This document shows positions 29,701-49,835 of a stretch of DNA of 64,000 bases, piece by piece. Within the stretch, counting starts at the first letter, position 1; the number at the start of each line of letters is the position of its first letter. This DNA is from Magnetococcales bacterium. Lineage in GTDB: Bacteria > Pseudomonadota > Magnetococcia > Magnetococcales > JADFYX01. Where the stretch lies: positions 1,044-65,043 of the forward strand of contig JADFZS010000010.1 of NCBI GenBank assembly GCA_015232405.1. The letters are read 5' to 3'. The notes beneath the pieces are model-generated. The model was not told the origin of the DNA and ran no database searches. It saw only the letters and a program-made list of their open reading frames with translations. The translations under genes and the position numbers were made by a program.

Positions 29701-29835
29701 CCCATCCTCGCTTTAACTGCACACGCTATGAGCGGAGATGAGGAAAAATCATTGGCTGCTGGATGTGATAGTCACATTACCAAACCTATCACGAAGCAAA
29801 AATTGTTGGAGTCGATTAATTTATTTATTAAATAG
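26740..29835 (+). CDS. Hybrid sensor histidine kinase/response regulator with N-terminal DUF3365-type heme-c domain and PAS domains
   Basis: A periplasmic/extracytoplasmic domain with CLKCH and GDIRGGIGVS, followed by three PAS-like units. HisKA MSHEIRTPLNAIIG, HATPase GGIGLGLPICKRLV and REC DLILMDIQMPVLDG. Confidence 0.85.
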   Translation: MIKNISTSDKLFGKNIRNTTIAVTILWTLLLGGSLSWNIYKEQQKTMALVTNSARENFNKDKAFRLWGTSHGGVYVPSTTRTPPNPNLKHIPERDIETPSGIKLTLMNPAYMVRQLMDEYSKLYGVRGRITSLQPLNEKNTPDDWERAALISFEKNEVDEVMSVTKFDGKSYLRLMRPMITKKGCLKCHGHQGYEIGDIRGGIGVSVLMDPYLDFEKESITTLSLSHIIFWMFGFGGIVLFAHRQYQQQSERNLAANNLFESEERFRQITDNITLVLWMMSADTKVIHFVSPSYENIWKRSCQSLYDEPHSWMTSIHVDDQKVVSESFQNMANTGVFDEVYRITRPDGEVRWIHEHAVPIKNKAGEIYRIAGFAEDITQQKQAEEDIKTANAKMLASERQLRSILFNSQAVVFLKDVEGRYQLINKKYEDLFHVTESEIIGKTDFDIFPAEMAETFRKNDNMVLKSGKPQEIEEHVPQQDGMHTYISVKFPLRNEDGVIYGVCGIATDITARRHAEESLQLSEERHRILLESITEIIWTTDSQGGFAKPQSSWENFTGQPWKEHKDYGWIKMIHEDDRKTIKKLWKEALKNKSIYESSGRVWSATLGEYRFFIARATPLLTGDGEVREWVGTISDVTERKMSEDALIDAKKSAEAANTAKSEFLAVMSHEIRTPLNAIIGMADISIERNQDPDLNHFLKIIDRSGNNLLNLIEDILDLSQIESGRMKVEYKPVDLEMLTLEALDIHTINAKNNWLDLTCKIDQNTPDSFTGDKKRLRQVLLNLIGNAIKFTKHGKVELLVSCPSSQSLQFSVVDTGIGIPEEQLQLIFEPFSQADSSNTREHGGIGLGLPICKRLVAAMNGEIWVESEVGKGSTFHFSIPLSEKDQLVVPSTTTNISQAQSSQLSGDALSILMAEDNLDGCMVIEAYISKTTHKLEIVENGALAVEKIKSGNKYDLILMDIQMPVLDGLTATKQIRAWEKEQNISKVPILALTAHAMSGDEEKSLAAGCDSHITKPITKQKLLESINLFIK

Positions 29836-32047: not shown

Positions 32048-35000
32048 TTATGGGGGGTGTGAGAGATTACGCTCTGTAGTTGCCATAGCGTAAAGCTTGC
32101 CAGTCTCGTCGCAAAGGTTTGTAATCGTAACAAGGACATCCAAAATCTTTCCATCCTTGGTATGCCTCTGTGTTTCAAATGGCAACACTTGCTCTCCTGA
32201 AGCGACCTTTTTGATGATACTGTCTATCTCTTTAATTTTTACCTTTGGTACGATCATTTTAATCGACTTGCCAATGGCCTCATTTTCGATATAACCATAC
32301 ATACGCTCTGCCCCCGGATTCCAAGCTGAGATGACGCCAGATAGATCTTGAACAGTAATAGCATCGTACGAATCCTGAACGACTACCGCCAACCGATTTA
32401 GCCTCTTCTGTTTTTTAATGCTTGTTATGTCCATAAATGTTATGACCACGCCATCGATTACATTTTCCAGAGTTCTATAGGGTTTCACACGCATATTTAA
32501 CCATTGCCAAGATTTTGTTTGGACCTCTACTTCTATAGGGACCAGATCCTCTAAAACCTTACTAGCGTCATTGGAAATGGATTCATATAAAAGATTTGTA
32601 ACAATGTGTGAAAGAGGACGACCAATGTCGGATGGAATAAGGTTGATAAACTCAGAAATCCTAGGGGTGAAACGACGTACATTTAAATCAAGATCCAAAA
32701 ACACTACTCCAACATCGGTACTAGCCATGTAGTTGGCCATGTCGTCATTTGCCTTGGACAACTCATTTATTTTTTCCTGATATTCGCTGTTAACCGTGGT
32801 CAACTCCTCGTTGATTGATTGCCCTTCCTCTTTAGAGGTTTCTAACTCTTCGTTGGCACTCTGCAACTCCTCGTTGGAGGCTTGCATCTCCTCGTTAGTT
32901 GATTTCAACTCTTCATTGGATGATTCCAACTCTTCAATGGTGGTCTGTAGATACTCTTTTGTGGAACTTAGCTCCTTCTCCAACTCAGCAATGCGTTTGT
33001 CCTTGTCTCCTGAAGTAACCATGGGTTTTGTTTTACGCTCTATATGAATTTGCTCAATGTCTTCAAAGATCACGACCTTATAACTTGATAGCTCTGGAAG
33101 ATCGGAAAGTGGTTTAACTAGAAGATTGATGTGCTGCACACCACCATTGACTCCGACTCGAACTCCTTCATATTTGACCGACTTACCCTCAGTTTTGACC
33201 TTACGGATCGCTGTTGTCAGGTCAGGAAGCAAACCTTCACGAGCCTGTTTCAAAATATTAAAACTTGCTTTACCTTGGTTTGCTTCTAAGTATTTTCCTG
33301 TACGCCCATGAATAAAGAGAATCTCATAGTGATCATTGATAATCACACATGCAGGGGTGTGTTGTGCCAACAAGAGATTTTCCATAGCAGATTTCAAGTC
33401 AAAATCAGGTTCTGTATTTTCACTTTCACCAGAAAACATTATTGGTGGTTCCCTGGTGTATTGAATTATGGGTGGTTCAAACCGTTTTTTATCATCCACA
33501 CAAATGGGTTTACGCTGGTACAGTTTCCATTTCCTATTGATGGTCTTAAAAAGATGAGAGCTACTTCCAACGGTTTCCGACGTTCCCAACAAAAGATGAC
33601 CGTTGGGTTTTAATGCATAATGGAAGATGGGTAGTACCTTTGCCTGAAGGGAGGCGCCGAAATAGATAAGCAAATTACGACAACTGATAAGGTCGAGTGA
33701 AGAGAACGGGGGGTCCTTAATCAAATTTTGTTCCGCAATCACCAGCATGTCACGAATCTTCTTGTTGATTTCGTAGCTGTTTCCTTCCTTTGTGAAATAG
33801 CGTTTCAACCTGTCGGAGGAGATATATGCGCTAATTGTGTCTGGATAAATGCCAAGACGAGCAAATTCGATAGCATGACTATCCAGGTCAGTGGAAAATA
33901 TTTGAATGTTGAACTGATGATTTTGTGTCTCCATATGTTCGTGAAGCAGTATTGCGATGGAGTATGCCTCCTCCCCAGTGGCGCAACCGGGAACCCAAAT
34001 CCGAATAGGCTGGTCTGGATTACGATCGGCAAAAAGTCCTGGAATAATTTTTGTTTCAAGTAGTTCAAATACCTCTGGATCTCTATAGAAATTAGAGACC
34101 CCAATCAAAAGTTCTTTGAACAGCGTACTGCTCTCTTCACGATTTTTCTGGAGACGCATGATGTAATCAGCTATCGAGTCAATTTGATTGATTGCCATAC
34201 GTCTCTGGACCCTGCGGAGAATGGTGTTCTCCTTGTACTGGGAAAAATCGTGACCAACCTTGGATCGTAAAATTACAAGTACTTTCTGAAGTTGTACCCT
34301 AATATCATCACCGATGGGCAACATCATTTTGTTTTGTAGAGCTATATCCCGATGTTGCAGGTAGGCGATTAATTTATCCGGCATATTCTCAGGTGCTATG
34401 GTGTAGTCAACCAAGCCTGTTTGGATGGCGTTGGCTGGCATTCCGTCAAATTTGGCTGAGGTCGGCTCCTGGACCATGACCATACCCCCCGCCTCTTTGA
34501 TTGCCTTCAAGCCCTGTGTGCCGTCTGTTCCCGTGCCAGAAAGAATTATACAAACGGCACGTTCCTTGGCATCTTCTGCCAAAGAGCGGAGAAAATTGTC
34601 GATGGTCAACCTTTGATGCCGTGGTTGGGTCGGCTCTATGAGATGAAGAGTATCATTAAGAATAGCCAAGTCCCGATCTGGTGGTATTACATATACACAG
34701 TTAGGTTCAACCTTGGTCCCATCTTCCACCTGGGCAACCTTCATGATGGTATATTGGGCGATCAATTCCGCCAGAATGCTATTGTGTTTAGCATCCAGGT
34801 GCTGTACCAGGACAAAGACCATTCCAGAGCTTGATGGTACATTTCTGAAAAACCTTTCATACGCCTCCAAACCACCAGCAGAAGCTCCGATGGCAATTAT
34901 GGGGAAACCGCTTTTCTCCTGTGAGACCTTCCTACTCGATTGATCATCTTTTGGCTGCTGCTTGGATGAACCTGAACTTCTCTTTGATTGTTTAGCGGGT

Positions 35001-35089
35001 CGTTTAGGCGGTTTTCTTTTCGCAATGCTGGAATCTTGGGCAGAGTTATTTTCTTTTTCAGAATCAAGAAATTTAGATATCCCAACCAT
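32048..35089 (-). CDS. CheB methylesterase-CheR methyltransferase fusion protein with coiled-coil and C-terminal PAS domains
   Basis: CheB-like IGASAGGLEA, CheR SAM-binding WVPGCATGEEAYS, a heptad region EELESSNEELKSTNEEMQASNEELQSANEELETSKEE and two PAS-like units. Confidence 0.85.
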   Translation of the reverse strand: MVGISKFLDSEKENNSAQDSSIAKRKPPKRPAKQSKRSSGSSKQQPKDDQSSRKVSQEKSGFPIIAIGASAGGLEAYERFFRNVPSSSGMVFVLVQHLDAKHNSILAELIAQYTIMKVAQVEDGTKVEPNCVYVIPPDRDLAILNDTLHLIEPTQPRHQRLTIDNFLRSLAEDAKERAVCIILSGTGTDGTQGLKAIKEAGGMVMVQEPTSAKFDGMPANAIQTGLVDYTIAPENMPDKLIAYLQHRDIALQNKMMLPIGDDIRVQLQKVLVILRSKVGHDFSQYKENTILRRVQRRMAINQIDSIADYIMRLQKNREESSTLFKELLIGVSNFYRDPEVFELLETKIIPGLFADRNPDQPIRIWVPGCATGEEAYSIAILLHEHMETQNHQFNIQIFSTDLDSHAIEFARLGIYPDTISAYISSDRLKRYFTKEGNSYEINKKIRDMLVIAEQNLIKDPPFSSLDLISCRNLLIYFGASLQAKVLPIFHYALKPNGHLLLGTSETVGSSSHLFKTINRKWKLYQRKPICVDDKKRFEPPIIQYTREPPIMFSGESENTEPDFDLKSAMENLLLAQHTPACVIINDHYEILFIHGRTGKYLEANQGKASFNILKQAREGLLPDLTTAIRKVKTEGKSVKYEGVRVGVNGGVQHINLLVKPLSDLPELSSYKVVIFEDIEQIHIERKTKPMVTSGDKDKRIAELEKELSSTKEYLQTTIEELESSNEELKSTNEEMQASNEELQSANEELETSKEEGQSINEELTTVNSEYQEKINELSKANDDMANYMASTDVGVVFLDLDLNVRRFTPRISEFINLIPSDIGRPLSHIVTNLLYESISNDASKVLEDLVPIEVEVQTKSWQWLNMRVKPYRTLENVIDGVVITFMDITSIKKQKRLNRLAVVVQDSYDAITVQDLSGVISAWNPGAERMYGYIENEAIGKSIKMIVPKVKIKEIDSIIKKVASGEQVLPFETQRHTKDGKILDVLVTITNLCDETGKLYAMATTERNLSHPP

Positions 35090-35316: not shown

Positions 35317-37395
35317 TTATATATTTAACGATGGCAAGATAATTGTAAACTCTGTCTTCACCCATGAATATTTGGATTTGGTTACTGTTATCTGACCTCT
35401 GTGATCTTCGATAATACCCTCAACGATAGAGAGTCCCAACCCGGTACCTTTGGTTTTACCCTTGGTGGTAAAAAATGGATCAAAAATCCTTCCTAATTGT
35501 GATTCTGGTATACCAGGTCCATTATCTCGCACCCAGATCCATATATGCTTGTCTTTTAATTTGGCAGCTATCCGTATTTTTAAATTATCGTTAGAATCGA
35601 TATTGTTAAATGCATCTATGGAGTTATTCAGTAGATTTACAAATACCTGAGTTATCTGCTGCCTATCACAATACATGATAAGATCATCTGGAATATCAAA
35701 TTGGATAGAATAATCAGGCTTTATTCTGTGACGCAGCAGTGTTTTTGCATCTTGTAATGGATCAATTACAAGGCATTCCACCTTATCCATCTCCATACCA
35801 CCCTTAGAATAGGTCTTGAGGCTATCGACAATTTTACTTATGCGTTTGCTACCATCTAGAATCCCATGTAAAGTCGGTTCTATCTCTTCTATAAAATTTG
35901 AAATCCTCCCACTTTTATCTTCATGACTGTTTTTTTGTACTATGGGTTTAGCAACGTCCCAAAATTTGTTGAGAAATTGGATATTACCAAAAATAAATGA
36001 GTTGGGATTGTTGATTTCATGGGCTATACCCGCTGAAAAAGTACCCAATGTTGCCAGGCGTTCGGCATGAATTAGCTGTTTTGTACGATCCTCTACCATA
36101 TGCTCCAACTTTTCAGCATATTGACGAAGTTGATTTTCAGACTCTTTTTTATGGGTTATATCTCTTATTGTCGCAATGAACTGTACAAAATCCCCTGAAC
36201 GAACATGGGTGATTGTTAACTCAATGGGAAAATGTTCCCCTCCTTTTTTCTCTCCAACAACCTCTTTTTCAAAAAAAAGCTCTCCTTGCACTCCATGCAA
36301 AACATTGTTATCCACATTGTTACTATGCCAATGCACATATTTTGCTATTAATTTATCATGTATTTGTTTTGTTGGGCTTGGTATCAATATTTTAATATTT
36401 TTATGTAAAAGCTCTTCTTTTTCATAACCAAAAATATGACAAATTGCAGGATTTACAGACTCAATTTTCCCCTTCATATTGGTGGTAATAATGCCCTCTC
36501 CCACATTGTCCATTATTGTTTCAATACGAACCCGGCTTCTATCAAGCCGGGAGTAACTATCTGATAAATTGGTCACCATTTGGTTGAAACTATTTGCCAT
36601 GTTCCAGAGTTCAGAACCCTCTAAAAGTGGAATTCTTTGGGTTAAATCACCTTTTTCTATCTTGGTGATGGTCTGGCACACCTCATTGAGTGGTTTTTCT
36701 ATCCCCTTTCGCAAATAAAAGTTAGTCAAAAACAAGATGGTAATAAGAGCAACAATTGATATTACAATGGCTTTATTTCTTGAGCTTTTGATAACAGCCA
36801 GCTCTGAATCCAGACTAATTTGAACATATACCAAACCAAGTAGTTCAGTTTCATGACCATGACATCTCTGGCACTGGGGTATTGAAATAATTGGAGTTAG
36901 AAATTCCATAAAATGTTTATCATCAGGAGAGTTACTGCTTTGGAACGTAACTGTTTGATGTGTTGCCAACATTTTTTTTAAATGTTTGTTTTGTGGGGAA
37001 ATGACCGACAACTCTTTTTTAGCTTTTCTATAGGGAAATAACTCACTACCCCTTTTGAAATTAACAGCATCGATAGTTGAGTTATCTCTGAACGCTTCTG
37101 TGCCGTCTATCCTTAAAATTTCAAAATGAATAACTTCAGGAACCAGCTTTAAATTTTCTGCATAGGTTGCTGCTACACTTGCCGAACCTGTAAGCATAAC
37201 TGACCTCAAGCCATAGATGGCTGTAGTAGTCAATTTTTGTCCATATTCTTTTTTTTGCTTAACAAAATTGTTTGATTGATGTTGTGAATAGATAATCAAA
37301 AGACCAAAAAGAACCAGAAATGAGACTGTACCAACCAAAGCAAGAATTTTGTCACAAATCTTTTTTTGCCGTTTTACATGATCGGAACTCAACAT
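35317..37395 (-). CDS. Sensor histidine kinase with extracytoplasmic CxxCH (heme-c) sensor domain, HAMP and PAS
   Basis: N-terminal TM, then a periplasmic domain with CQRCHGHE, a second TM and HAMP. HisKA AGIAHEINNPNSFI and HATPase GTGLGLSIVEGII. Confidence 0.85.
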   Translation of the reverse strand: MLSSDHVKRQKKICDKILALVGTVSFLVLFGLLIIYSQHQSNNFVKQKKEYGQKLTTTAIYGLRSVMLTGSASVAATYAENLKLVPEVIHFEILRIDGTEAFRDNSTIDAVNFKRGSELFPYRKAKKELSVISPQNKHLKKMLATHQTVTFQSSNSPDDKHFMEFLTPIISIPQCQRCHGHETELLGLVYVQISLDSELAVIKSSRNKAIVISIVALITILFLTNFYLRKGIEKPLNEVCQTITKIEKGDLTQRIPLLEGSELWNMANSFNQMVTNLSDSYSRLDRSRVRIETIMDNVGEGIITTNMKGKIESVNPAICHIFGYEKEELLHKNIKILIPSPTKQIHDKLIAKYVHWHSNNVDNNVLHGVQGELFFEKEVVGEKKGGEHFPIELTITHVRSGDFVQFIATIRDITHKKESENQLRQYAEKLEHMVEDRTKQLIHAERLATLGTFSAGIAHEINNPNSFIFGNIQFLNKFWDVAKPIVQKNSHEDKSGRISNFIEEIEPTLHGILDGSKRISKIVDSLKTYSKGGMEMDKVECLVIDPLQDAKTLLRHRIKPDYSIQFDIPDDLIMYCDRQQITQVFVNLLNNSIDAFNNIDSNDNLKIRIAAKLKDKHIWIWVRDNGPGIPESQLGRIFDPFFTTKGKTKGTGLGLSIVEGIIEDHRGQITVTKSKYSWVKTEFTIILPSLNI

Positions 37396-37745: not shown

Positions 37746-38543
37746 ATGATTAGAAGTTTATTAACAAAAAAAAGCTCCATACAAAAAAAATATTTCGTAT
37801 TAAAATATTTAATCATGTTTTCTGTATTGTTTTTTCCTCATTCAAACGCTTTTTGTCAGGAAATTGAAAATTTTGATCTGCCATCCATAATCCGCGGTGG
37901 CAAACTATATGATAACTGGTTGGCATTTGTTCCAAAAGAAAAACAGCATTTAATAAGTAAAGTGAGAAAATCTCATCCCTCTTATCCCAAAAATAGCAAG
38001 CAAAATGGTATAACTACATGGCGCTGTAAAGAGTGTCACGGCTGGGATTATAAGGGTGTTTCAGGTGCGTATAAAACCGGTTCACACTACACGGGTATAA
38101 TAGGGATAGATAAATATACAGGACGCAAAACAGATGAGGTAATGCAAATTTTACGTGATAGTACACATAAAATTTCTGGTGATATGATCTCCCAAGAAAA
38201 CGCAAAATCTCTTGCTGCTTTTGTGATAGCTGGTCAGGTGGAAATGGATGATTATTTCAAACCAGGAACCTCAAAAATTGATGGAAACGCCAACAGAGGT
38301 AAACCATTTTTTCAAACTCTATGCTCAAGTTGTCATGGGCTAGATGGACGGTTAATTAACTTCAGTGTAAAAATTAATGAATATGAATTTTTAGGAAGTA
38401 TAGGAAAGAAAAACGTGTGGGAGTTAATACATAAAATTCGCAACGGACAACCTGATGAAAAAATGATCTCTTTGCGGGCATTAACTCTTCAACAGCAAAA
38501 AGATATCGTCGCATACATTCAAACACTTCCAGACAAACCATAA
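37746..38543 (+). CDS. Diheme c-type cytochrome (periplasmic)
   Basis: Signal peptide plus two CxxCH motifs (CKECH, CSSCH). Confidence 0.8.
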   Translation: MIRSLLTKKSSIQKKYFVLKYLIMFSVLFFPHSNAFCQEIENFDLPSIIRGGKLYDNWLAFVPKEKQHLISKVRKSHPSYPKNSKQNGITTWRCKECHGWDYKGVSGAYKTGSHYTGIIGIDKYTGRKTDEVMQILRDSTHKISGDMISQENAKSLAAFVIAGQVEMDDYFKPGTSKIDGNANRGKPFFQTLCSSCHGLDGRLINFSVKINEYEFLGSIGKKNVWELIHKIRNGQPDEKMISLRALTLQQQKDIVAYIQTLPDKP

Positions 38544-38621: not shown

Positions 38622-39065
38622 ATGCAATCTAAATCGACAAAGATAAAATTAATGATAGTTGATGACGAGCCTGAAATTCAGAGGAGTATCGGTCGGTTTA
38701 TCTCTTTTCAACCGGAAATGGAGTCAGTTGAGATAATCAACGCCAGTACCTTTGAAGAGGCACTGAAATTACTGGAAAATGAGACACCTCTTATTATCCT
38801 CCAAGATATCAATTTACCGGACGGTAACGGCCTTCAATTTATAAAACAGGCCAAGAAGAAATATCCAATGGTCCAATTTATCGTGATTACTGGCGCTAGT
38901 GATCTTGATAGAGTTATGGAGGCTATATCTCTAGGAGCGGTTGATTATATCAAAAAGCCCCTTGATCTTGAATCACTTTCAACTGTTATCCAAGAGACCA
39001 TGAACAGGTGCAAACGTTTAAGAGAGCTACTTGTGGAAGAGTATTCTTCGCAAAATACAGCCTGA
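38622..39065 (+). CDS. Single-domain response regulator (CheY-like receiver)
   Basis: MIVDDEPEI...IILQDINLPDGNG...VITGASD...K pattern of a REC domain. No output domain. Confidence 0.85.
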   Translation: MQSKSTKIKLMIVDDEPEIQRSIGRFISFQPEMESVEIINASTFEEALKLLENETPLIILQDINLPDGNGLQFIKQAKKKYPMVQFIVITGASDLDRVMEAISLGAVDYIKKPLDLESLSTVIQETMNRCKRLRELLVEEYSSQNTA

Positions 39066-39233: not shown

Positions 39234-39746
39234 TTACAGATCAGAAAATTGAAAAAATTTCTTGTAATCATCCAATTGTTGTTCTCGGTCAACTGGTGAT
39301 CCATTTTTTGATTCTTGCTGGCTAATAGCAGCCTTTATTTGCTTTGCCACAGCCATGTCAAATTTTGAAATATGTTCTGAATATTTCTTGATAATTTTTG
39401 AAAAAATATCAATTTGATTTTTATAGAGCATGATACGCGAGTTAGTGGCAAAAAAGATCAAAAAATCTGCATGATCACGCATATGGGCTTTTACATTATG
39501 CACCTGGCTTTTTACCATTAGTGTTTCTTCATACAAAAAATGCTCGTAGAAGTTGTTTTCTAATGTTGTGAGTAGATTTACCGCGGTTTTTTGATCAGAT
39601 TTTGTAGCTAGAAAATTTGCAACTTTCTGCATTCGAGACAGTAGCTCTTTGTGCTGATCATCCAGGTTTGTGACATCAGTAATTGGAATGGTAAATGAAA
39701 ACTTTTCATGAATATTGTGTTTTTCAGATTGAAAACTTATTGACAT
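39234..39746 (-). CDS. Hemerythrin-like metal-binding protein (bacteriohemerythrin family)
   Basis: LDDQHKELL followed by FYEHFLYEETLM...H...H..DH..F, matching the spacing of the hemerythrin His/Glu iron ligands. Confidence 0.65.
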   Translation of the reverse strand: MSISFQSEKHNIHEKFSFTIPITDVTNLDDQHKELLSRMQKVANFLATKSDQKTAVNLLTTLENNFYEHFLYEETLMVKSQVHNVKAHMRDHADFLIFFATNSRIMLYKNQIDIFSKIIKKYSEHISKFDMAVAKQIKAAISQQESKNGSPVDREQQLDDYKKFFQFSDL

Positions 39747-40243: not shown

Positions 40244-40624
40244 ATGAAAGCCAAATTGCTTTTCAAAAGTCTTATTGTCCATCTTTTCAGCTTCTTGTTT
40301 GTGATGGTGGTAAGTGTCTCATTTACCCTTATCAGCACAAGCGATGCCTATGCCAAGTTTAATGCCAGGTCGGCAATGAAAGTTCTAAAACGCAACGACT
40401 GCACCAAGTGCCATTCTGTCAAAAAATCCAAGAACGGCCCCTCTTACCGTAAAGTATCAAAAAAATATCGTGGCAAACCCGATGCAGAAGAAAAACTATA
40501 CAAACATCTGACCACCAACCCAATTGTTGAGTTGGAAGATGGTACAAAAGAAGAGCATAAAAAAACCGATTTTGATAGTGATGAACAACTTCGAGAGTTC
40601 ATCCGTTGGATTTTAACACTATAA
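40244..40624 (+). CDS. Monoheme class-I c-type cytochrome (c551/MtoD-like), periplasmic
   Basis: Signal peptide ending in AYA. Single CTKCH followed by NGPSYRKVSKKYRG, similar to the c551/c552 pattern. Confidence 0.75.
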   Translation: MKAKLLFKSLIVHLFSFLFVMVVSVSFTLISTSDAYAKFNARSAMKVLKRNDCTKCHSVKKSKNGPSYRKVSKKYRGKPDAEEKLYKHLTTNPIVELEDGTKEEHKKTDFDSDEQLREFIRWILTL

Positions 40625-40742
40625 GTAGGCCGGATTATTCTGGATCTTAGAACAATCCGATGATTACGTCTCATGTCATCCTACAAATAAGACGCAAATA
40701 TCTATATTTAAAAAGATATTAAAAAAGCCAGGGAGAAGGAAG

Positions 40743-41834
40743 TTGAAGATAAAGCACTCTTTATTGGTAAATATGATCACAATCGTTCTTCTGTTGGTGG
40801 GCAGTGTAGATATTGCATTTTCCATGGAAAATGAAAAGCTACCCCTAATGTCAGATACACAAAAAGATGCTAACACATCCAGCTCCTATGAATATGACGA
40901 AGATGATAATAGGCAGAAGCGCGTTGACGTGGTGCTCAAGGGTGATGCTGCCTGTACCTTCTGTCATGAGGAGGAGGATTCTGTATCCCTGCTTAAAATT
41001 GGCAAGACAAAACATGGTACACTGGCAGATGATCGTGTACCAACCTGTACCGACTGCCATGGTGCTAGTGAACAACATCTTGTGAAAAAATCTGGTAGTG
41101 ACAAACGACCTCTACCCGATATTGTCTTTCCCAGTCGTAACCCTGGAATTATAGACGATTTCAATATTGATGAGGACCACGGCCAGGTCAAGATCGCCAA
41201 GATGCCTGCCGCTGCCATGAATAAGCCCTGCCTTAAGTGTCACAAGGATAATCGTCTTATGTTCTGGGCTAGCAGTGCCCACGCCAACCAGGATGTGGCC
41301 TGTACCAGCTGTCATGAACTACATACTGATAACGACAGGGTATTACACACTGGTGGTCAGCCCAATGTCTGTTTTAGTTGTCACAAAAATCAACGTGCTC
41401 TTTTCAACAGACCTTCCCATCACCCGGTTCCTGAAGGACAGATGGTCTGTTCCGACTGTCACAATCCCCACGGTTCTGCTGGGCCTAAATCTTTAAAAAA
41501 GGATACTGTCAACGAGGTTTGTTACCAGTGCCATACAGAAAAGCGTGGTCCCTTTGTCCATATGCACCCACCAGTACAAGAAGATTGTAGAATATGTCAT
41601 AACCCCCATGGAACTGCCGTTGCAGACCTTCTGATAAGCAGACCACCATATCTGTGCCAGGAGTGTCATAGCAGCACCTACCATCGTAGTCAGGTTGCTG
41701 GTTTGCCAGGGTCACCATCGTCAAATCCAAATGTTTTGGGAACCATAGCCCGCGGATGTGTGAAGTGTCATACCCAAATTCATGGTGGTAACAGTAACCA
41801 GAACATAAGGAGAGATGGTCGTTACTTCCGCTAA
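40743..41834 (+). CDS. Decaheme c-type cytochrome, MtrA/DmsE/PioA/MtoA family
   Basis: Ten CxxCH motifs counted (CTFCH, CTDCH, CLKCH, CTSCH, CFSCH, CSDCH, CYQCH, CRICH, CQECH, CVKCH). Signal peptide present. TTG start behind GGGAGAAGGA. Size of ~360 aa is typical of the family. Confidence 0.85.
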   Translation: MKIKHSLLVNMITIVLLLVGSVDIAFSMENEKLPLMSDTQKDANTSSSYEYDEDDNRQKRVDVVLKGDAACTFCHEEEDSVSLLKIGKTKHGTLADDRVPTCTDCHGASEQHLVKKSGSDKRPLPDIVFPSRNPGIIDDFNIDEDHGQVKIAKMPAAAMNKPCLKCHKDNRLMFWASSAHANQDVACTSCHELHTDNDRVLHTGGQPNVCFSCHKNQRALFNRPSHHPVPEGQMVCSDCHNPHGSAGPKSLKKDTVNEVCYQCHTEKRGPFVHMHPPVQEDCRICHNPHGTAVADLLISRPPYLCQECHSSTYHRSQVAGLPGSPSSNPNVLGTIARGCVKCHTQIHGGNSNQNIRRDGRYFR

Positions 41835-41968
41835 TGGCATAATGGGCTACAGCCTTATATCTCTGGTTTAATAATTTGCTTAAAAGAAATAAGAGACTAT
41901 CACAATGGTTGAGGGTCAGGTCATCAAACATTGGAGAGGTAGAAATCTACCAAGGGAATCTAATTATC

Positions 41969-44065
41969 ATGAATAGAATCAAACACACACTGACCATGGC
42001 ATCATGTTTTGCCGCATTGCTTGGGGCTGTTGGGGGGGCAGAGGCCCAGGAAATGAGTGAAACTGCTGCAGAGTTCATCAAACCTGAGAGTTGGTTCTCT
42101 ATTGGTGTTGGATTGCAAGATGGTAACAGGGAACAACTGGGAACCTTCGACAATGAACGTGGCAGTGGTGTGCGGTTGCTGTTGGATGCCGACCTTAAGG
42201 TGAGAGATGATAAAACAGGTATATGGAAGACCGCCCAGATAAAAAATCTGGGGCAGGATAACCGCAGTGTAAAATTGGGTTATAACCACCAAGGACAGTG
42301 GGGTGTCACACTCGACTATGTAAGCATGCCTAGAGTAGCACCATTTACGGTTTATTCCAGCAACAGTGGTTTGGGTACAGCAACACATATAATCAACACC
42401 ACTGCCGCTGCTGGTAGTGGACCGGAAGTAGAGGTCAAAACCAACCGTGACCGAACCAAGCTCAGTCTCTATAAAAATGTTAAAGATCACCTACGCTTCA
42501 ATTTTAATTTTAGCAATCAGATAAAGAGTGGAACCCGTGTTTGGGGACAACGTGGTTATGGTGATGGTGGCAGCTATCCTGAGTTTTTGTTGGAACCCAA
42601 CAATCACACCATTCGTGATATGGATACCAGTGTCAACTATATGAGTGATAAACTGCAATTGACACTTGGTTATTTTGGCAGTTGGTTTTCCAATGAAGAT
42701 AATTTAGTAAATGTGACTAGAGAAACTGGTACTGCAACATCTCCCTATATATCCCTGCCATTAGATAATGAAGCCCACAAGCTTCATATGAGTGGTGGTT
42801 ATAACTTTACCGATACAACCCGTGGTGCTTTTAAAGTCTCTTATAACAGAGCACTGCAAAATGAGAGAATGCATCTGTCTGACATAACTGGTTTGAGCAT
42901 TAGTGATACCGCACCAACAAGTTTAGAAGGTAGGATAGATACCACATTGGTGCAGGTGGATGTGACCAGTCGCCCTAATCCAAAGTTAAATGTTTTGGCA
43001 AAGCTGCGTTATCTCAATGATGAGGATAGAACCCCTCCTTGGGAAGTGGTCACAGGCTCCACGACAATACGCTCCAATCCAATATCCAAAACAACCTACA
43101 CCGGAAAGGTTGAAGCTACCTATCGCCTGCCAGACAGAACCAGGGTAACAGCAGGAATCAAACATGAGTTCCAAGATCGTGAAGTACCCATTGGTAATGA
43201 TAGTGATGGGGATGGTTTTGACAACGAACGTGTCGTTCCATTTCGTACTGAATTGAGTGAAACCACTTATAAACTTCAATTACGTCGGGCTTTAACCCAA
43301 ATTGCCAACGGTTCTTTGTCCTATAAACATTCAGAACGTGATGGATCAAATTATACCGATGGTGATAGACTAACAGAGAGTTCCACCCTACAGATTACTC
43401 CCTACTATATATCAGACCGTACACGTGACAAGTTGCGACTGGCTGTTGATGTTCGTCCTATTGATGTCTTTGGATTACAATTTAGCTCTGAGTATGTAAA
43501 CGATAAACACAGCAAAGGTGATAGACCACACGGACGGGATAAAGCACGTACTCAGCTCTACTCAATCGATGCCGATTATGCCTATTCCAGTGACCTGCTA
43601 TTCACAGCATGGTATTCCCGACAGATAGATGAGATATGGCTTGGTACATACTATGCCTTTAATGGTACAAATCCGGCTGAGAAATACTCCGAAGTCGAAG
43701 ATACATCCGACTCAATTGGATTCGGAGTTCGCAACCAATATAGTGATTCCATAAAACTCGGTGCAAATTTGTTGATGACAGTCACCGAAGTGAAGTACAA
43801 TGATGTGGTTGAACCGACTGGAGTGACTCAGTTACCGGAAATCGAAAGCGAAACCACCAAGTTCAACGCTTTTGTTGAATATGTTGGGTTAGGTCCGGGA
43901 ACTCTGCGAGCAGATTATGTATACGAACGGTGGGACACCAATGATTGGACTTGGCAGTTCAGCGATGGTTCCCCATATAGCTATCTGACCGATGGTACTA
44001 CCATTGTTGCAGATGATGTTCAGGAATCCAACTTTATTGGGGTCCGCTATACGACCGAATTTTAG
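41969..44065 (+). CDS. Outer-membrane beta-barrel protein, MtrB/PioB/MtoB family
   Basis: Signal peptide MNRIKHTLTMASCFAALLGAVGGAEAQ, ~700 aa of alternating beta-strand-like sequence and a C-terminal aromatic residue (...RYTTEF). It sits immediately downstream of the decaheme gene. Confidence 0.75.
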   Translation: MNRIKHTLTMASCFAALLGAVGGAEAQEMSETAAEFIKPESWFSIGVGLQDGNREQLGTFDNERGSGVRLLLDADLKVRDDKTGIWKTAQIKNLGQDNRSVKLGYNHQGQWGVTLDYVSMPRVAPFTVYSSNSGLGTATHIINTTAAAGSGPEVEVKTNRDRTKLSLYKNVKDHLRFNFNFSNQIKSGTRVWGQRGYGDGGSYPEFLLEPNNHTIRDMDTSVNYMSDKLQLTLGYFGSWFSNEDNLVNVTRETGTATSPYISLPLDNEAHKLHMSGGYNFTDTTRGAFKVSYNRALQNERMHLSDITGLSISDTAPTSLEGRIDTTLVQVDVTSRPNPKLNVLAKLRYLNDEDRTPPWEVVTGSTTIRSNPISKTTYTGKVEATYRLPDRTRVTAGIKHEFQDREVPIGNDSDGDGFDNERVVPFRTELSETTYKLQLRRALTQIANGSLSYKHSERDGSNYTDGDRLTESSTLQITPYYISDRTRDKLRLAVDVRPIDVFGLQFSSEYVNDKHSKGDRPHGRDKARTQLYSIDADYAYSSDLLFTAWYSRQIDEIWLGTYYAFNGTNPAEKYSEVEDTSDSIGFGVRNQYSDSIKLGANLLMTVTEVKYNDVVEPTGVTQLPEIESETTKFNAFVEYVGLGPGTLRADYVYERWDTNDWTWQFSDGSPYSYLTDGTTIVADDVQESNFIGVRYTTEF

Positions 44066-44151
44066 CTGTAATGTTCATTTAGAACAGCAACAGCAACCAA
44101 CAATGGTTGCTGTTGCCGTTTTAAGTGATCAGCTTTCTTAGAGAAACACCT

Positions 44152-46194
44152 ATGATGAATACTGAGCAGACTTTTATGAAACATAACTCAGTACAAAAAA
44201 TAGTGTTGGTGTTGTCCCTTCTTGTCTGCTTGTTATCACCAGTCATTTTCTCTACCAACCTCTTTGCAAACTCTTCTAGCAAAAACACTGTAATACCATG
44301 GGCAAAAGATAACCATGTCTGTATGGAGTGCCATGACGGTCGAAAGCGGATTGATGTCGTTGATACCGGCATATATTCAGAACCCGGAGATGAAAGACAA
44401 CTCAAGGCAATCTACCCGGAGCAATATGGGGTAGGTATCCATGCCAATATGCTCTGTACCGATTGCCACGCCTCCATCACAAGCCCAGAACCACCTCATC
44501 AGGTGGGTGAAGCCAAAAAAATCAATTGTGTCGAATGTCATAAAAAGCTGTTAGAAGATTTTAAGGTCGGCAAACTGCACACCTCCCACTTGAAAAGATT
44601 GCATGTTGTGGCACAAAACACAGAAAATTATCTGGTTTCATACCATGCTCGTGACAATAAAGATGATGATCGTTTTGCCAATGCTTGGTGTGATGATTGT
44701 CATGATAGCCATTTTTTCAATATACCAACGGCTAAAGATAGCCCCACTTATATGTCATGGCGTTATGGAATCCCTGATAAATGTGGCGGCTGTCACGATT
44801 ATGCACTGGAGACCTACGTAAATTCGGTACATGGGGTGGAGTTGCTTGATAAAAACAACTTCGATTCTGCCAACTGTACCGATTGCCATCCGGCATATAT
44901 GAAAGGTGGCGCCCATTGGACTGTTTTCAAAGTTGGTAGCCAGGACTCTTGTGGCTCCTGTCATCCAAAAAATCTAGAATCCTATCGCAATACCTATCAT
45001 GGTCAGGTGACAAAACTCGGTTATACCCATACAGCTAAATGTTTTGACTGCCACGAAAGTCACAAAACCCTGCCTGTAGACAATCCCAAATCGTTGGTTC
45101 ATGAAAACAACCTTTTAAAAACCTGCCAAAAATGTCATGACGGAAAAAAAAGACCTTTGGCAACCAAGGGATTTACTACCTACAGCCCCCATGCTCATGA
45201 TGGTGATTTTAAACGTTATCCCCAGGTTTGGATCGCCTCCTGGTTTATGTATTCATTATTGAGTTTAGTCACAATATTTTTCCTGGTTCACTCCATATTA
45301 TGGTTTTATCGGGAATGGCAAGATAAACAGAAAAAAATAGTGGCAAAGAGTGTGGATTGGACCGCTTTGGGTCTATCTCCCACGCAACATATTCAACGTT
45401 ATACTGGTGAGTGGCGTCTGTTTCACGGCCTGTTTTCTTTTGCGGTCATTATGATGATCACAACCGGTATGTCCCTTAAATTTTCCCACACCACCTGGGC
45501 GCCTCTTATTGCAAAGCTATTTGGTGGTGTAGAGTATATGGGGTTGGTTCACCGCTATGTTGCGGCTTTTATGTTTGTATTATTTGTTTCTCACCTATTC
45601 ATACTGTTGAAACGGTTGTTGCGTGATCCAGATTTTCGCTGGTTTGGGCCGGATTCTCTACTACCAACCTGGAGAGATTTTGTACACTGTTGGCAAATGT
45701 TTGTCTGGTTTTTTAATCGCGGTGAAAAACCCAAATTTGATCGCTGGCCCTATTACACCAAATTTGGTTATTGGGCCATCTATTGGGGTATTGTTGTAAT
45801 AGGAGTTAGTGGTCTGATATTGGCTTTTCCAACTATAGCGGGACAGTATCTTGAAGGGTGGGTGTTTAACGTGTCCCTGCTGGTTCATAGTGTGGAGGCG
45901 TTGTTGGCAACTTTCTATCTATTTGTCTTCCACGTTTTTCATAACAATTTTCGCCCAAGCAAGGTGTTGCATCAGGAGGCGGTAATTTTCAGTGGTAGCC
46001 AAAGCCTGGAGGTATTCCAAAGGGAGCATCCAGCTCAATTTGACCGTCTGGTTGCCAATGGCAAATTACAGCAACTGTTTATTACCGAGCCTTCACCAGA
46101 GATGCTCAAGAAAATTAGTTTAAAAAGGATGTTGCTGATAGCGGCAGGTTTTTTAGTCCTGGCTCTAGTTCTAAATGGTGTTCTGACATCTTGA
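44152..46194 (+). CDS. Nine-heme c-type cytochrome fused to a C-terminal membrane cytochrome b (FdnI/HydC-like) domain; CbcL-like quinol oxidoreductase
   Basis: Nine CxxCH motifs (CMECH, CTDCH, CVECH, CDDCH, CGGCH, CTDCH, CGSCH, CFDCH, CQKCH), followed by 5-6 TM helices with conserved His residues (FLVHSILWF, RLFHGLF, LVHRYVAAF, LLVHSVEALL..FHVFH). Confidence 0.8.
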   Translation: MMNTEQTFMKHNSVQKIVLVLSLLVCLLSPVIFSTNLFANSSSKNTVIPWAKDNHVCMECHDGRKRIDVVDTGIYSEPGDERQLKAIYPEQYGVGIHANMLCTDCHASITSPEPPHQVGEAKKINCVECHKKLLEDFKVGKLHTSHLKRLHVVAQNTENYLVSYHARDNKDDDRFANAWCDDCHDSHFFNIPTAKDSPTYMSWRYGIPDKCGGCHDYALETYVNSVHGVELLDKNNFDSANCTDCHPAYMKGGAHWTVFKVGSQDSCGSCHPKNLESYRNTYHGQVTKLGYTHTAKCFDCHESHKTLPVDNPKSLVHENNLLKTCQKCHDGKKRPLATKGFTTYSPHAHDGDFKRYPQVWIASWFMYSLLSLVTIFFLVHSILWFYREWQDKQKKIVAKSVDWTALGLSPTQHIQRYTGEWRLFHGLFSFAVIMMITTGMSLKFSHTTWAPLIAKLFGGVEYMGLVHRYVAAFMFVLFVSHLFILLKRLLRDPDFRWFGPDSLLPTWRDFVHCWQMFVWFFNRGEKPKFDRWPYYTKFGYWAIYWGIVVIGVSGLILAFPTIAGQYLEGWVFNVSLLVHSVEALLATFYLFVFHVFHNNFRPSKVLHQEAVIFSGSQSLEVFQREHPAQFDRLVANGKLQQLFITEPSPEMLKKISLKRMLLIAAGFLVLALVLNGVLTS

Positions 46195-46218: not shown

Positions 46219-48165
46219 TTAGTTATTAAACTTGTTCAGTAATCTTGGTATCATTTCAGCTGGTTGCGCTCTACCGTGTAACCAACCCTGAACATCATCG
46301 CATCCTCCTTCAAACAATCTACACTGTTGATCTGCGGTCTCCACACCTTCAGCAGTTACCATTAAATTTAGACTGCGTGCCATGTTAATGATGGCAAAAA
46401 CTATATTGGATTTATCGGGTTTTGATTGCAGAGAAGTGATAAATGAACGGTCTATTTTAAGGCGATCAAAGGGAAACTGTTGCAGATGGGATAGTGATGA
46501 ATAACCAGTACCAAAATCATCAAGTGAGATTTTTACCCCCAACGCTTTAAGAGAGACAAGCACCTCTTTTGCCCTTTGGGCATCAGTCATAACCTGTGAT
46601 TCGGTTATTTCCAACTCCAGACAGTGGGGCGGCAGACCTGTACGTTGCAAAGATCCGACAACCACATCAACCAATTTAGGGTCGGAGAACTGACGAGGTG
46701 AGAGGTTTACAGCCACATGGAGGTTCTCATAACCCATATCTAGCCAACGTTTCAGATCCAAACAAGCACTTTCTAGAATATGCTGACCTAATGGAAGAAT
46801 TAAGCCAGTCTCTTCTGCCAGGGGAATAAACTGGTCTGGAAAGGCCACCATATGCCCAGGGTCAGCGGGGTCCAACCAGCGAACCAAAGCCTCAAAACCA
46901 ACAATTTTCATGGTGGAGAGAGCAATTTTTGGCTGATAATATGCTACTAGATCACCTTGATTAAGGGCGTTACGCAGATCATGCTCAAGATCTAGCAGGT
47001 TTTGGTTTTGTAGATGGGCCTCTTTGGAAAAAAGCTGGTACTCACCACCACCCTTTTTTTTGGCACTTTTCAAGGCAAACATGGCTTTTTCCAGCAGTTG
47101 ATCTCCATCATCGGGAAAAAGGCTTATACCGATACTAAGCTGAACTTGGAGAAACCTGCCATCCACCTGGATGGGTTTAGCCATGGCATCTTGAATTCGA
47201 CGTAACGGATGCATGATCTCACTGGTGTTTTGGATGGAACATAACAATAAAAACTCATCACCATCAGCCTTTGCCAAGGTGTCGCCACCACGCAAAACCC
47301 CAGCCAACCTTGTAGCCAGGGTTTTGAGAACGGCATCACCTCCGGTACGACCCATTGTATCGTTTATTCTACTAAAGCGGTCCACACCTAAAGCCATTAC
47401 TGCAATGGCCTCTTTGCTTCTTCGAGACTTGTATATAACCTGCTCCAACCTATCGATAAACAGACGTCGGTTGGGAATTCCAGTCAGTTTATCTTCAATA
47501 GCACGCTTTTGCTTTCGTTCATTATTCGTGTGCAATGTGTGCAAAACACTAAGAGCCATGGAGATGGAATCGACCAAAAGCTTACTGTGTGGATTCTCTT
47601 TGCAACGATCTCTGATTATAATGTTGACCACCATGATTATCTTTTCTGAGTTCATGGCTTTGACTTTGAAGATGCTATGACCGTGAGGTTTAGAATCATC
47701 TAAACGGTTGATATGGTTTTCATCAATTTCAGGTCTAAATAGGTAAGTGTGTTCCATATCCATGGCCAGTCCACACAGGCAACTGCCAAAGTCAATATTT
47801 CTACATAAATTGATCTGTTCCGGGGAAAAATTACTATGGGCAACCATGTTAAGCTTGCCATTTTCTTCATCTACCAAAAACAGGCAACCAGAGTCCAGGC
47901 TGTCCACATTGGGAATTGACAATAGATGATCCAGGGCCTTTTGCAGTTTGACTTTTAGTGAATCAGGAGTCGTGGAGAGACTGACAATATCCGTAATGAC
48001 CTTGAGTGCTATTCGATATTCGTCGGCTTCCGCCACAAGTGTCTGCTGAATCGTGGTTTGCAGTAGGTCAAAAAGTTCACGTTGCCCACAATCATCACGT
48101 TTTTTACCAACCTTGAAAAGATGACTCAACAGGGCTTTTAGGGGGGTGCTGTTATCACTCAACAT
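46219..48165 (-). CDS. GAF-like sensor / degenerate GGDEF / EAL protein (probable c-di-GMP phosphodiesterase)
   Basis: The GGDEF position reads ADGDEF (degenerate). EAL motifs are intact: FEALVRW, DDFGTGYSSL, LKIDRSF, EGVET. Confidence 0.85.
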   Translation of the reverse strand: MLSDNSTPLKALLSHLFKVGKKRDDCGQRELFDLLQTTIQQTLVAEADEYRIALKVITDIVSLSTTPDSLKVKLQKALDHLLSIPNVDSLDSGCLFLVDEENGKLNMVAHSNFSPEQINLCRNIDFGSCLCGLAMDMEHTYLFRPEIDENHINRLDDSKPHGHSIFKVKAMNSEKIIMVVNIIIRDRCKENPHSKLLVDSISMALSVLHTLHTNNERKQKRAIEDKLTGIPNRRLFIDRLEQVIYKSRRSKEAIAVMALGVDRFSRINDTMGRTGGDAVLKTLATRLAGVLRGGDTLAKADGDEFLLLCSIQNTSEIMHPLRRIQDAMAKPIQVDGRFLQVQLSIGISLFPDDGDQLLEKAMFALKSAKKKGGGEYQLFSKEAHLQNQNLLDLEHDLRNALNQGDLVAYYQPKIALSTMKIVGFEALVRWLDPADPGHMVAFPDQFIPLAEETGLILPLGQHILESACLDLKRWLDMGYENLHVAVNLSPRQFSDPKLVDVVVGSLQRTGLPPHCLELEITESQVMTDAQRAKEVLVSLKALGVKISLDDFGTGYSSLSHLQQFPFDRLKIDRSFITSLQSKPDKSNIVFAIINMARSLNLMVTAEGVETADQQCRLFEGGCDDVQGWLHGRAQPAEMIPRLLNKFNN

Positions 48166-49835
48166 ACAGGATCATTCTCTTGTTTTGCTAGTTGAACACA
48201 GTTGCGCCCCGCTCTTTTTGCTTGATATAGCGCATTATCAGCTAGCTTGACCAACTTTTCTCCACTCATCTTTGTTTCAAAATCTTTATAAACAACCACA
48301 CCAAGGGATATAGTTACTTTTAGACCATCAACCACCATAGCTTCAATGTCGGACCGCAAACGCTCCGCTGAGAACATAGCCCCCCGTTCATTGGTGTTGG
48401 GGAGAATAGCGACAAACTCCTCACCACCATAGCGGCAACTGATGTCCAGATTACGCATGGTGCTCTTCATCTGTTTGCCAACTGCTTCCAACACGCGATC
48501 ACCCTGGTCATGACCATGGGTATCATTAAATTTCTTAAAATGGTCGACATCAAATAGAATTAATGACATGACCTGTTTATATCTGGTAGACCTGCCAATC
48601 TCTGCGACCAATGACTCATCAAACATACGTCGATTGTTAAGGCCTGTAAGGGCATCGGTTGTTGCAATATGTCTTAGTTGCTCTTCTAGTTTTTTCTCAG
48701 CTGTTACATCACGAATAAGAGCTGCGGAACCAACCAACTCATCTTTCTCATTATAAAAAGATGATGCATAAAAAGAGAGCACCTTATCTTTATAAAAAAT
48801 TATATCAGGTGGTACATTTTCACTCAAATGGGCATCGATATAGGCCGGATCATCCACCAACTGATTAAAACCTTCTTGGATTATTGTTTTTCTGCGTTTT
48901 TTCAACAAACGTTCTGCAGATGGGTTGACCAAAACCACATTGTTTTGACGATCAGTAACAACTATACCCTCTCTAGCGGAAAGAATGATTGTTGAGAGTT
49001 TCTCTTTTTCACTGATAAGTCCTGAGTGGGTACGAGAGAGTTCATTAGCCATTAAATTAAATATATTGGCCATATCGCTCAATTCATCTCTTCCGATAAT
49101 TGGTACTTGATGATCCAAGTCACCTTCGGATATTGTCTGCATGGCCATTTTCATATCCCGGATCGGAATAACAAGGGAGCGTATCAATAGCCAACCTGCT
49201 AAACTGGTCATCAATACCGCCATTAGCATAACTATTTTAAGACCCTGTTTTAACTGGGACATCTCCGCCACAAGATCATTCATGGCTAAAACAGCCAGAT
49301 CTCTCTCTTGTCGTAGCAGTGGCTCTAAATCAAAATCAACATACTCAGCTGAGGTATTAAACTCCCTTTTGGCTTCAAAGCCCTCCTCTTTTCGTTCTTC
49401 AACAAAAGCCAAGGCCATCTTTTTACCAAGTTCGTAAAACTCCTTGGTACTTTCTCTAATTCTCTCTACACTTTCGATCACATCTTTATTATCTTTGCCA
49501 GCATAGAACTTTTTGTACTCTTCTAGGTTCTCAAGGAAATCGTCAAAATAGTCAGAAGCACCACTAAAAACATCAGAATCCGATCTCTCATCCTTATCAA
49601 TAGCAACTTCTGTAAGATAATATTGCATTTGCAGTAGATCTTTGCCCATGTTGTTGCCAAGCATCATCAATTGCAATCTCTGGTCACGTACCTCTTGAAT
49701 TGAGCGGAACATACCTTCGATGGCAATCCAACTCCAGATACCAACAAACATAAGCATCAACAACGGAATAATAACTCCAAGGGTTACTCTGACGCTGATT
49801 TTAAATCTATTAAGATTCATTAGAACTCCCGCCAC
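48159..49835 (-). CDS. Membrane sensor diguanylate cyclase (helical sensor-HAMP-PAS-GGDEF)
   Basis: Two TM segments flank a helical extracytoplasmic domain, then HAMP and PAS. Active-site RYGGEEF has a canonical I-site RNLD five residues upstream. It overlaps the downstream gene by 7 nt. Confidence 0.85.
   Translation of the reverse strand: MAGVLMNLNRFKISVRVTLGVIIPLLMLMFVGIWSWIAIEGMFRSIQEVRDQRLQLMMLGNNMGKDLLQMQYYLTEVAIDKDERSDSDVFSGASDYFDDFLENLEEYKKFYAGKDNKDVIESVERIRESTKEFYELGKKMALAFVEERKEEGFEAKREFNTSAEYVDFDLEPLLRQERDLAVLAMNDLVAEMSQLKQGLKIVMLMAVLMTSLAGWLLIRSLVIPIRDMKMAMQTISEGDLDHQVPIIGRDELSDMANIFNLMANELSRTHSGLISEKEKLSTIILSAREGIVVTDRQNNVVLVNPSAERLLKKRRKTIIQEGFNQLVDDPAYIDAHLSENVPPDIIFYKDKVLSFYASSFYNEKDELVGSAALIRDVTAEKKLEEQLRHIATTDALTGLNNRRMFDESLVAEIGRSTRYKQVMSLILFDVDHFKKFNDTHGHDQGDRVLEAVGKQMKSTMRNLDISCRYGGEEFVAILPNTNERGAMFSAERLRSDIEAMVVDGLKVTISLGVVVYKDFETKMSGEKLVKLADNALYQAKRAGRNCVQLAKQENDPVC

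Follow-up and report, generated by a model that had tools for sequence, protein, structure and literature searches.

Do four adjacent genes in a Magnetococcales genome encode a new way of wiring the quinone pool to the cell surface, or a known one in an unexpected host? The genes lie within positions 40244-46194 of a 64-kb stretch of DNA (64,000 nucleotides of contig JADFZS010000010.1, assembly GCA_015232405.1; hereafter the window), all on the + strand. A first-pass annotation, made from the sequence and placing them at the same coordinates, had read them as encoding a monoheme cytochrome c, a periplasmic decaheme cytochrome, an outer-membrane β-barrel and an inner-membrane cytochrome c-cytochrome b fusion of the CbcL type, and had taken the combination for a novel hybrid. 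We find these four identities upheld by hidden Markov models (HMMs), solved structures and predicted folds. The supposed hybrid is a further example of the mtoDABC layout described in 2012 in iron-oxidizing bacteria, not a new wiring. The locus very probably encodes an mtoDABC-type porin-cytochrome electron conduit of the kind known from Gallionella capsiferriformans ES-2 and Dechloromonas aromatica RCB.

Identity and Architecture of the Four Proteins

The four open reading frames (ORFs) are separated by 118 base pairs (bp) between mtoD and mtoA, 134 bp between mtoA and mtoB and 110 bp between mtoB and mtoC, and the cluster lacks mtrC and unites on a single strand mtoA, mtoB, mtoD and a gene for an inner-membrane cytochrome. 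Counting CxxCH motifs gave 1, 10, 0 and 9 hemes for the four products in order, exactly the numbers of the first-pass annotation, which was also right about the C-terminal Phe of the barrel and about the lack of a decaheme of the MtrC/OmcA type: no MtrC/OmcA-like gene was found by motif count in the 64-kb window, where every other ORF has at most two CxxCH motifs. Rfam and tRNA scans of the whole window were empty.

The mtoD-like gene (40244..40624, +) encodes a protein of 126 amino acids (aa), a periplasmic monoheme class-I cytochrome c with a signal peptide and a single heme motif, C53-x-x-C56-H57, which matches Pfam Cytochrom_C with 31.6 bits. Its best relative among solved structures is 4XXL (E 2.4e-22 over residues 22-126), the MtoD of Sideroxydans lithotrophicus ES-1. 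The heme of that protein is ligated by His47 and His95 (PMC4412085), and these residues align with His57 and His105 of the window protein. Bis-His ligation, with His105 as the distal ligand, is predicted for the window protein because inspection of its sequence found no Met C-terminal to the heme motif in the mature protein.

The mtoA/mtrA-like gene (40743..41834, +) starts with TTG, directly preceded on its 5' side by GGAGAAGGA. Its 363-aa product carries ten CxxCH motifs and, as read from the sequence, an N-terminal hydrophobic, signal-like segment. It matches the NCBIfam model TIGR03508 (DmsE-family decaheme) with 258.7 bits, above the cut-off of 192.2, over model positions 1-257 of 258, and it matches chain A of 6R2Q, the structure of the Shewanella baltica Mtr complex, with an E value of 4e-55; we take this chain to be MtrA, the decaheme subunit.

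Adjoining the decaheme gene on the same strand (end of mtoA, 41834; start of mtoB, 41969) is the mtoB/mtrB-like gene (41969..44065, +), whose product lacks CxxCH motifs. The ORF opens upstream at a TTG at 41876 (729 aa), and a deposited protein of 100% identity starts at the ATG at 41969 (698 aa) and bears the NCBI name 'MtrB/PioB family decaheme-associated outer membrane protein'. The product has a signal peptide ending in ...GGAEA and the C-terminus ...TTEF. It matches Pfam MtrB_PioB (PF11854) with 354 bits against a threshold of 23 (E 2e-105) and TIGR03509 with 284.3 bits against a cut-off of 240.05. When the solved structures were searched with the single sequence (phmmer), MtrB was missed and nothing was found. 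However, a family profile built from 59 sequences matched 6R2Q_B end to end with an E value of 7.8e-111, and because the profile recovered MtrB so decisively, we regard the phmmer miss as a limit of sensitivity and not as evidence against membership. The AlphaFold2 model, with a mean predicted local distance difference test score (pLDDT) of 88.3 and about 27 long strands assigned by DSSP, where an MtrB-like barrel has about 26, had 6R2Q_B as its top Foldseek match (E 3.7e-36; template modeling (TM) scores 0.81/0.86), whereas other barrels, mostly TonB-dependent receptors and LptD, reached a TM score of 0.42 at most. On its sequence and modeled fold the product clearly belongs to the MtrB/PioB family, in which it would serve as the outer-membrane barrel sheath, and the possibility that the barrel is unrelated to MtrB/PioB, which the first-pass annotation had allowed for, is excluded by the curated HMMs, the family profile and the fold.

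The last gene, a member of the CbcL/MtrH/MtoC family (44176..46194, +), encodes a 672-aa product with nine CxxCH motifs. Its ORF opens at a GTG at 44125 (689 aa), and the deposited protein of 100% identity, named 'cytochrome b/b6 domain-containing protein', starts at the ATG at 44176 (672 aa). An N-terminal signal or anchor is followed by a nonaheme c domain (residues ~45-340) and, at ~350-670, by a cytochrome b domain of six helices; the latter matches Pfam Ni_hydr_CYTB with 52 bits (cut-off 30), and multiheme domains are matched as well. Six hydrophobic segments lie beyond residue 350, in agreement with the long helices of the AlphaFold2 model (pLDDT 86.3). Six histidines, H372, H417, H459, H473, H571 and H586, do not vary among 67 homologues. 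All six are placed inside or at the borders of the membrane segments and are putative b-heme ligands. The membrane domain of the model superposes with a TM score of 0.81 on the target 1KQF_C, the FdnI subunit of Escherichia coli formate dehydrogenase-N, a diheme cytochrome b that reacts with quinones. A sequence search of solved structures returned only a marginal and uninformative cytochrome c match, and neither sequence nor fold search found a solved relative over the whole length, the likeness to FdnI covering the membrane domain only.

Homologues of this protein are numerous (2479 at E<=1e-10), and the window protein is 43-45% identical over its full length to proteins found in MtoC context in Dechloromonas and Gallionellaceae genomes. 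All nine heme motifs are kept in each of the 67 aligned homologues. The fifth motif (residues 203-207 of the window protein) is CX2CH in 35 of the 67, including the window protein and the sampled Magnetococcales, and CX3CH in 31, and the one other homologue has seven CX2CH, one CX3CH and one CX4CH. Because the fifth site can be CX3CH, plain CxxCH counts under-report the hemes of some MtoC proteins. To our knowledge, MtoC is biochemically uncharacterized despite its thousands of homologues.

The mtoDABC Arrangement in the Literature and in Other Genomes

The claim of novelty had rested on the view that CbcL-type proteins are not linked to MtrAB-type genes, and the literature contradicts it. The CbcL/MtrH/MtoC family was defined by Zhong & Shi 2018 (PMC6295460), where linkage of mtrH or mtoC to mtrAB or mtoAB is reported for seven further species besides Gallionella capsiferriformans ES-2 and Dechloromonas aromatica RCB. 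In the latter two, mtoC is clustered with mtoA, mtoB and mtoD, a finding that goes back to Shi et al. 2012 as relayed by PMC6295460, PMC5566968 and PMC8805035. He et al. 2017 (PMC5566968) mention a 'nonaheme MtoC in ES-2' and call the RCB operon 'mtoABCD'. In addition, mtoC and mtoD adjoin mtrCAB as passenger genes of mtr loci, and both are almost exclusively betaproteobacterial (PMC8805035).

To these reports our synteny survey adds a count. The sample consisted of 80 loci obtained by scanning the species-representative genomes of GTDB with an MtoC alignment, together with seven Magnetococcales loci, 87 MtoC loci in all, and gene arrangements were assigned by tblastn. The order mtoD-mtoA-mtoB-mtoC (D-A-B-C), with strand as in the window, was found in 12 of the 87, and D-C-A-B in eight. 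D-C only (29/87) and C only (24/87) were frequent, many of these loci ending at contig edges, and other permutations made up the remainder. In most of the 87 loci mtoD directly adjoins mtoC. The D-A-B-C loci include those of Dechloromonas hankyongensis, Pseudothauera nasutitermitis, a Leptothrix metagenome-assembled genome (MAG) and four Magnetococcales MAGs, and across them the heme counts are 1, 10, 0 and 8-9.

An unprecedented hybrid, in which a Geobacter-type CbcL inner-membrane module had been joined to an MtrAB/MtoAB outer-membrane module, is thus extremely improbable. The domain architectures do match the description given in the first-pass annotation, and the best-studied systems, those of Shewanella and Sideroxydans ES-1, do use CymA at the inner membrane. 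However, the combination has been in print and named (MtoC, MtrH) since 2012, the identical gene order recurs in the 12 loci, which span several orders, and each of the four proteins is closest to a Magnetococcales counterpart, which points to inheritance as a cluster and not to a recent chimera. The arrangement had therefore already been described, on genomic grounds, when it was put forward as new. As mechanism the locus offers nothing new, the set MtoD-MtoA-MtoB-MtoC being a textbook candidate pathway of neutrophilic iron oxidizers.

A Candidate Path across the Envelope and Its Direction

By analogy with the structure of the Shewanella Mtr complex and with the Mto literature, the mtoDABC products would bridge the cell envelope between the quinone pool and the cell surface, a capacity that had been proposed at the outset and that our results support. 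MtoB would form the barrel in the outer membrane, and MtoA, threaded through MtoB in a complex of the two, would provide a heme wire across that membrane. The bis-His monoheme cytochrome MtoD would act as the periplasmic electron shuttle, and MtoC would be the interface with the quinone pool, by way of its nine-heme periplasmic domain and its six-helix, FdnI-like cytochrome b. Were electrons to flow inward, MtoD would pass them to an oxidase and/or to MtoC, which would reduce quinones in reverse electron flow.

We lean, with modest confidence, toward inward flow, that is, toward electron uptake with extracellular Fe(II) or minerals containing Fe(II) as the source. We do so because no MtrC-type surface cytochrome is encoded in the window, because the relatives of the cluster are Mto-type clusters of lithotrophs, because Sideroxydans ES-1 specifically induces its Mto proteins on solid minerals that contain Fe(II), magnetite among them, and because cultured Magnetococcales are microaerophilic organisms with a lifestyle in micro-oxic gradients. 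In FeGenie, a missing MtrC serves to mark the Mto type.

Several points weigh against this reading. The direction of flow, which the first-pass annotation had rightly left undetermined, is undecidable from sequence, MtoA and MtrA being perhaps functionally interchangeable and reversible (PMC10734462), and the label that FeGenie gives to MtoAB is 'possible oxidation or reduction'. The protein on which the MtoC family was founded, CbcL, works in an iron reducer as a quinol oxidase, and the kinship of the family to this Geobacter protein rests on a published identity of 35% (PMC6295460). The host is uncultured, and the conduit is known here from its genes alone. Lastly, the four genes may not form one simple transcript, given the spacing of 110-134 bp from one gene to the next and the very stable hairpin that separates mtoB from mtoC.

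Outward flow, with MtoC as a quinol oxidase that would deliver electrons via MtoD to MtoAB for the respiration, without oxygen, of extracellular or chelated Fe(III), Mn(IV), humics or a different external acceptor, strikes us as less likely but as a serious and plausible rival, with support of its own. It would accord with the presence in the family of CbcL from an iron reducer and of MtrH from Rhodoferax ferrireducens, with the possible interchangeability and reversibility of MtoA and MtrA, and with the behavior of the window decaheme, which aligns with Shewanella MtrA over 199 residues about as well as with MtoA-type relatives at 44-54% identity. Yet characterized mineral-reducing Mtr systems have a surface cytochrome of the MtrC/OmcA type, and the 64 kb analyzed here encode none. 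Moreover, the nearest genus-named homologues outside the Magnetococcales include those of Sulfuricella, Thiobacillus, Sulfuritalea, Gallionella and Dechloromonas, and these named Betaproteobacteria are sulfur- or iron-oxidizing or denitrifying. The potential of ES-1 MtoD, +155 mV, would also suit donation to an oxidase better than acceptance of electrons from low-potential quinols.

The Cluster within the Magnetococcales

Genes for MtoA, MtoB, MtoC and an MtoD occur together in at least five other Magnetococcales genomes, in four of them in D-A-B-C order. These four are MAGs (L084, L085, L086 and L087); a fifth MAG (L083) has the order A-B-C-D, and in Magnetococcus sp. DMHC-6 (L002) a divergent mtoD precedes A-B-C. 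Two further Magnetococcales MAGs (L081 and L082) have MtoC alone and are nearly identical to each other at this locus.

Each of the four window proteins is more similar to its Magnetococcales homologues than to those of Beta- and Gammaproteobacteria, which speaks for inheritance of the whole cluster as one unit within the order. Identities are 57-65% versus 32-53% for MtoD; 60-66% to the decahemes of Magnetococcales mto clusters versus about 34-54% for MtoA, the D. hankyongensis decaheme standing at 54%; 42-50% at the Magnetococcales loci (up to 66% to database proteins) versus at most 40% for MtoB; and 46-52% versus 38-47% for MtoC. Recent horizontal acquisition was considered and rejected, because the GC content of the cluster (0.41-0.44) lies inside the range of the window (0.35-0.48) and the four proteins are nearest to Magnetococcales homologues. 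In a neighbor-joining tree of MtoC, the Magnetococcales form deep, paraphyletic branches, and all sequences labeled as betaproteobacterial or otherwise non-Magnetococcales form one clade; this tree is rough, distance-based, midpoint-rooted and limited to top matches, and is a lead, not a result.

A search of the literature, whose coverage was incomplete, found no publication tying MtoA, MtoB or decaheme cytochromes to the Magnetococcales or to magnetotactic bacteria, and because no paper was found that ties this order to Mto, we regard the host as the sole new element of the locus. Its value is accordingly taxonomic and ecological: a complete Mto set in the Magnetococcales stands against the nearly exclusive betaproteobacterial distribution of PMC8805035. 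If the conduit is functional, magnetotactic-type cocci would gain a means of electron exchange with solid iron phases at oxic-anoxic interfaces, which would bear on both their energy gain and their iron handling.

A tentative proposal, and one that we hold to be doubtful at present, is that the Magnetococcales contain a large stock of complete Mto pathways that has gone unnoticed. In the rough tree their MtoC sequences branch deepest and show the greatest diversity. If the proposal were true, these gradient dwellers could draw on Fe(II) minerals outside the cell, perhaps magnetite among them, as a source of electrons; the MtoC-type wiring of betaproteobacterial iron oxidizers could share an origin with that of the Magnetococcales; and the flanking genes for cyclic di-GMP (c-di-GMP) signaling, chemotaxis and heme-sensor kinases would tie the conduit to redox-taxis.

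The identity of the host also invites a reading outside energy metabolism, in which the cluster would handle iron for magnetosome magnetite, by redox conditioning of extracellular iron for uptake or by balancing Fe(II) and Fe(III). The window is part of a Magnetococcales MAG, the cluster is common in the MAGs of this order, and interaction with magnetite is known in Sideroxydans for MtoA in purified form as well as for the Mto pathway. Nevertheless, we consider such a role very unlikely: no magnetosome gene was recognized among the annotated ORFs of the window, the same cluster in the same order is found in many Beta- and Gammaproteobacteria not known as magnetotactic, the quinone-coupled partner in the inner membrane points to respiratory coupling, and magnetotaxis of this MAG is not established.

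The mtoB-mtoC Hairpin

A stem-loop lies in the gap between mtoB and mtoC (44075..44127, +; terminator scan and RNA fold). It has a perfect core of 13 bp (44087-44116), extends to about 24 pairs and is followed by CGTTTTAAGT, with a weak U-tail. The RNA of 44060-44180 folds with -43.6 kcal/mol (z = -6.5), and none of 200 shuffled sequences folded as well. Strong hairpins, some with U-tracts and none homologous to this one, also lie 3' of mtoB in the D-A-B-C loci L084, L031, L030 and L025. The element is a candidate partial terminator, attenuator or mRNA-stabilizing structure, and a recurrent hairpin after mtoB may adjust how much of the outer-membrane module is made relative to MtoC. Over the whole window, the terminator scan gave six hits versus 5.6 expected in shuffles, among which only the hairpin at 44087 stands out individually, and σ70-like promoter sites were not in excess (18 versus a shuffled expectation of 20.2).

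Neighboring Genes

The surroundings of the mto cluster are unusually rich in signaling proteins. About 10 kb upstream, 26740-29835 (+) encodes a hybrid histidine kinase-response regulator having an N-terminal Tll0287-like domain (PF11845, 79 bits) with a CxxCH motif, a putative c-heme sensor of redox state or gases. Closer by, the product of 35317-37395 (-) is a HAMP-PAS histidine kinase whose two transmembrane segments enclose a periplasmic loop with a CQRCH motif. The loop matches the Mcp40H-20 sensor domain (PF21563) below threshold (22.4 bits, cut-off 27, E 1.6e-4), and the kinase may be a second heme-c sensor beside the cluster. Between these two genes lies 32048-35089 (-), which encodes a 1013-aa fusion of CheB methylesterase, CheR methyltransferase and PAS domains.

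Upstream of mtoD by 1.2-2.5 kb, and outside the described mto set, are genes for a 265-aa diheme class-I cytochrome c (37746-38543, +) and for a stand-alone response-regulator receiver protein (38622-39065, +), which may serve the conduit as an extra periplasmic carrier and as a regulator, respectively. The ORF divergent from mtoD (39234-39746, -; 170 aa) has a weak match to the hemerythrin HHE domain (19.8 bits, cut-off 25.3, E 0.0012), and in L084 a methyl-accepting chemotaxis protein with a hemerythrin domain follows mtoC.

On the other side, c-di-GMP signaling genes for a GGDEF-EAL protein (46219-48165, -) and a 4HB_MCP-HAMP-PAS-GGDEF protein (48159-49835, -) abut the cluster. HAMP-PAS-GGDEF or methyl-accepting chemotaxis genes also flank mto in five Magnetococcales MAGs, upstream in L083, L086 and L087 and downstream in L084 and L085, a recurrent signaling neighborhood that suggests a tie between the conduit and the control of behavior or biofilm formation. 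In L083, a trio of genes for a cytochrome b (Ni_hydr_CYTB), a DUF1924 protein and a diheme DHC protein lies about 4 kb downstream of the mto cluster (12889-14469 of that locus) and is similar to the 'iron-responsive' cluster (CytB, SHP-like and sDHC) that has been discussed in connection with Sideroxydans and Ferrigenium; no such CytB-DUF1924-DHC trio was seen among the annotated ORFs of the window.

Comparison with Known Systems

Rhodopseudomonas palustris PioABC, a system of Fe(II) and electrode oxidation, has a homologous decaheme and barrel and, like the window, lacks a surface cytochrome. However, PioC is a HiPIP, an iron-sulfur protein of high potential, and not a cytochrome c, and the pio operon has no MtoC-type gene. 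PioA (~540 aa) and PioB (~810 aa) also far exceed in length their window counterparts of 363 aa and 698 aa.

Geobacter sulfurreducens CbcL is comparable to the inner-membrane component of the window. CbcL belongs to the same family, combines multiheme c and six-helix cytochrome b domains with conserved His residues, and is about 35% identical to MtoC proteins (PMC6295460); it differs in having genetic evidence for a role as quinol oxidase in an iron reducer. According to the first-pass annotation, the Geobacter gene for CbcL also has no mtrAB-type pair beside it.

Shewanella MtrCAB (6R2Q) resembles the window in its outer-membrane part, the decaheme matching MtrA and the barrel matching MtrB by profile and by fold, and the mechanism of an insulated heme wire in a barrel is presumably common to both. 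Unlike Shewanella, the window encodes no MtrC/OmcA surface cytochrome, and its barrel is only about 20% identical to MtrB. The inner-membrane partner of the Shewanella system is CymA and its periplasmic carriers are FccA and STC, whereas the window has MtoC and the monoheme MtoD.

The cluster of Sideroxydans lithotrophicus ES-1, mtoD-mtoA-mtoB-cymA/imoA, encodes an MtoAB-type conduit that, as in the window, lacks MtrC, and it is the only Mto system with expression evidence, namely induction on magnetite and smectite. The difference lies at the inner membrane, where ES-1 has the tetraheme CymA/ImoA in place of MtoC.

The mto clusters of ES-2 and RCB share all four parts with the window, MtoD, MtoA, MtoB and a nonaheme MtoC, without MtrC (PMC5566968, PMC6295460). 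This type was represented in our comparison by D. hankyongensis and Gallionellaceae MAGs in place of the RCB and ES-2 type sequences. The D. hankyongensis locus (L030) shares the D-A-B-C order and strand with the window and has heme motif counts of 1, 10, 0 and, for MtoC, eight CX2CH plus one CX3CH; its proteins are 46% (MtoD), 54% (MtoA), 38% (MtoB) and 44% (MtoC) identical to those of the window. Two differences stand beside this agreement: at its fifth heme site the MtoC of the window has CX2CH, where about half of the homologues have CX3CH, and the hosts of the ES-2/RCB clusters are Betaproteobacteria, whereas the host of the window belongs to the Magnetococcales.

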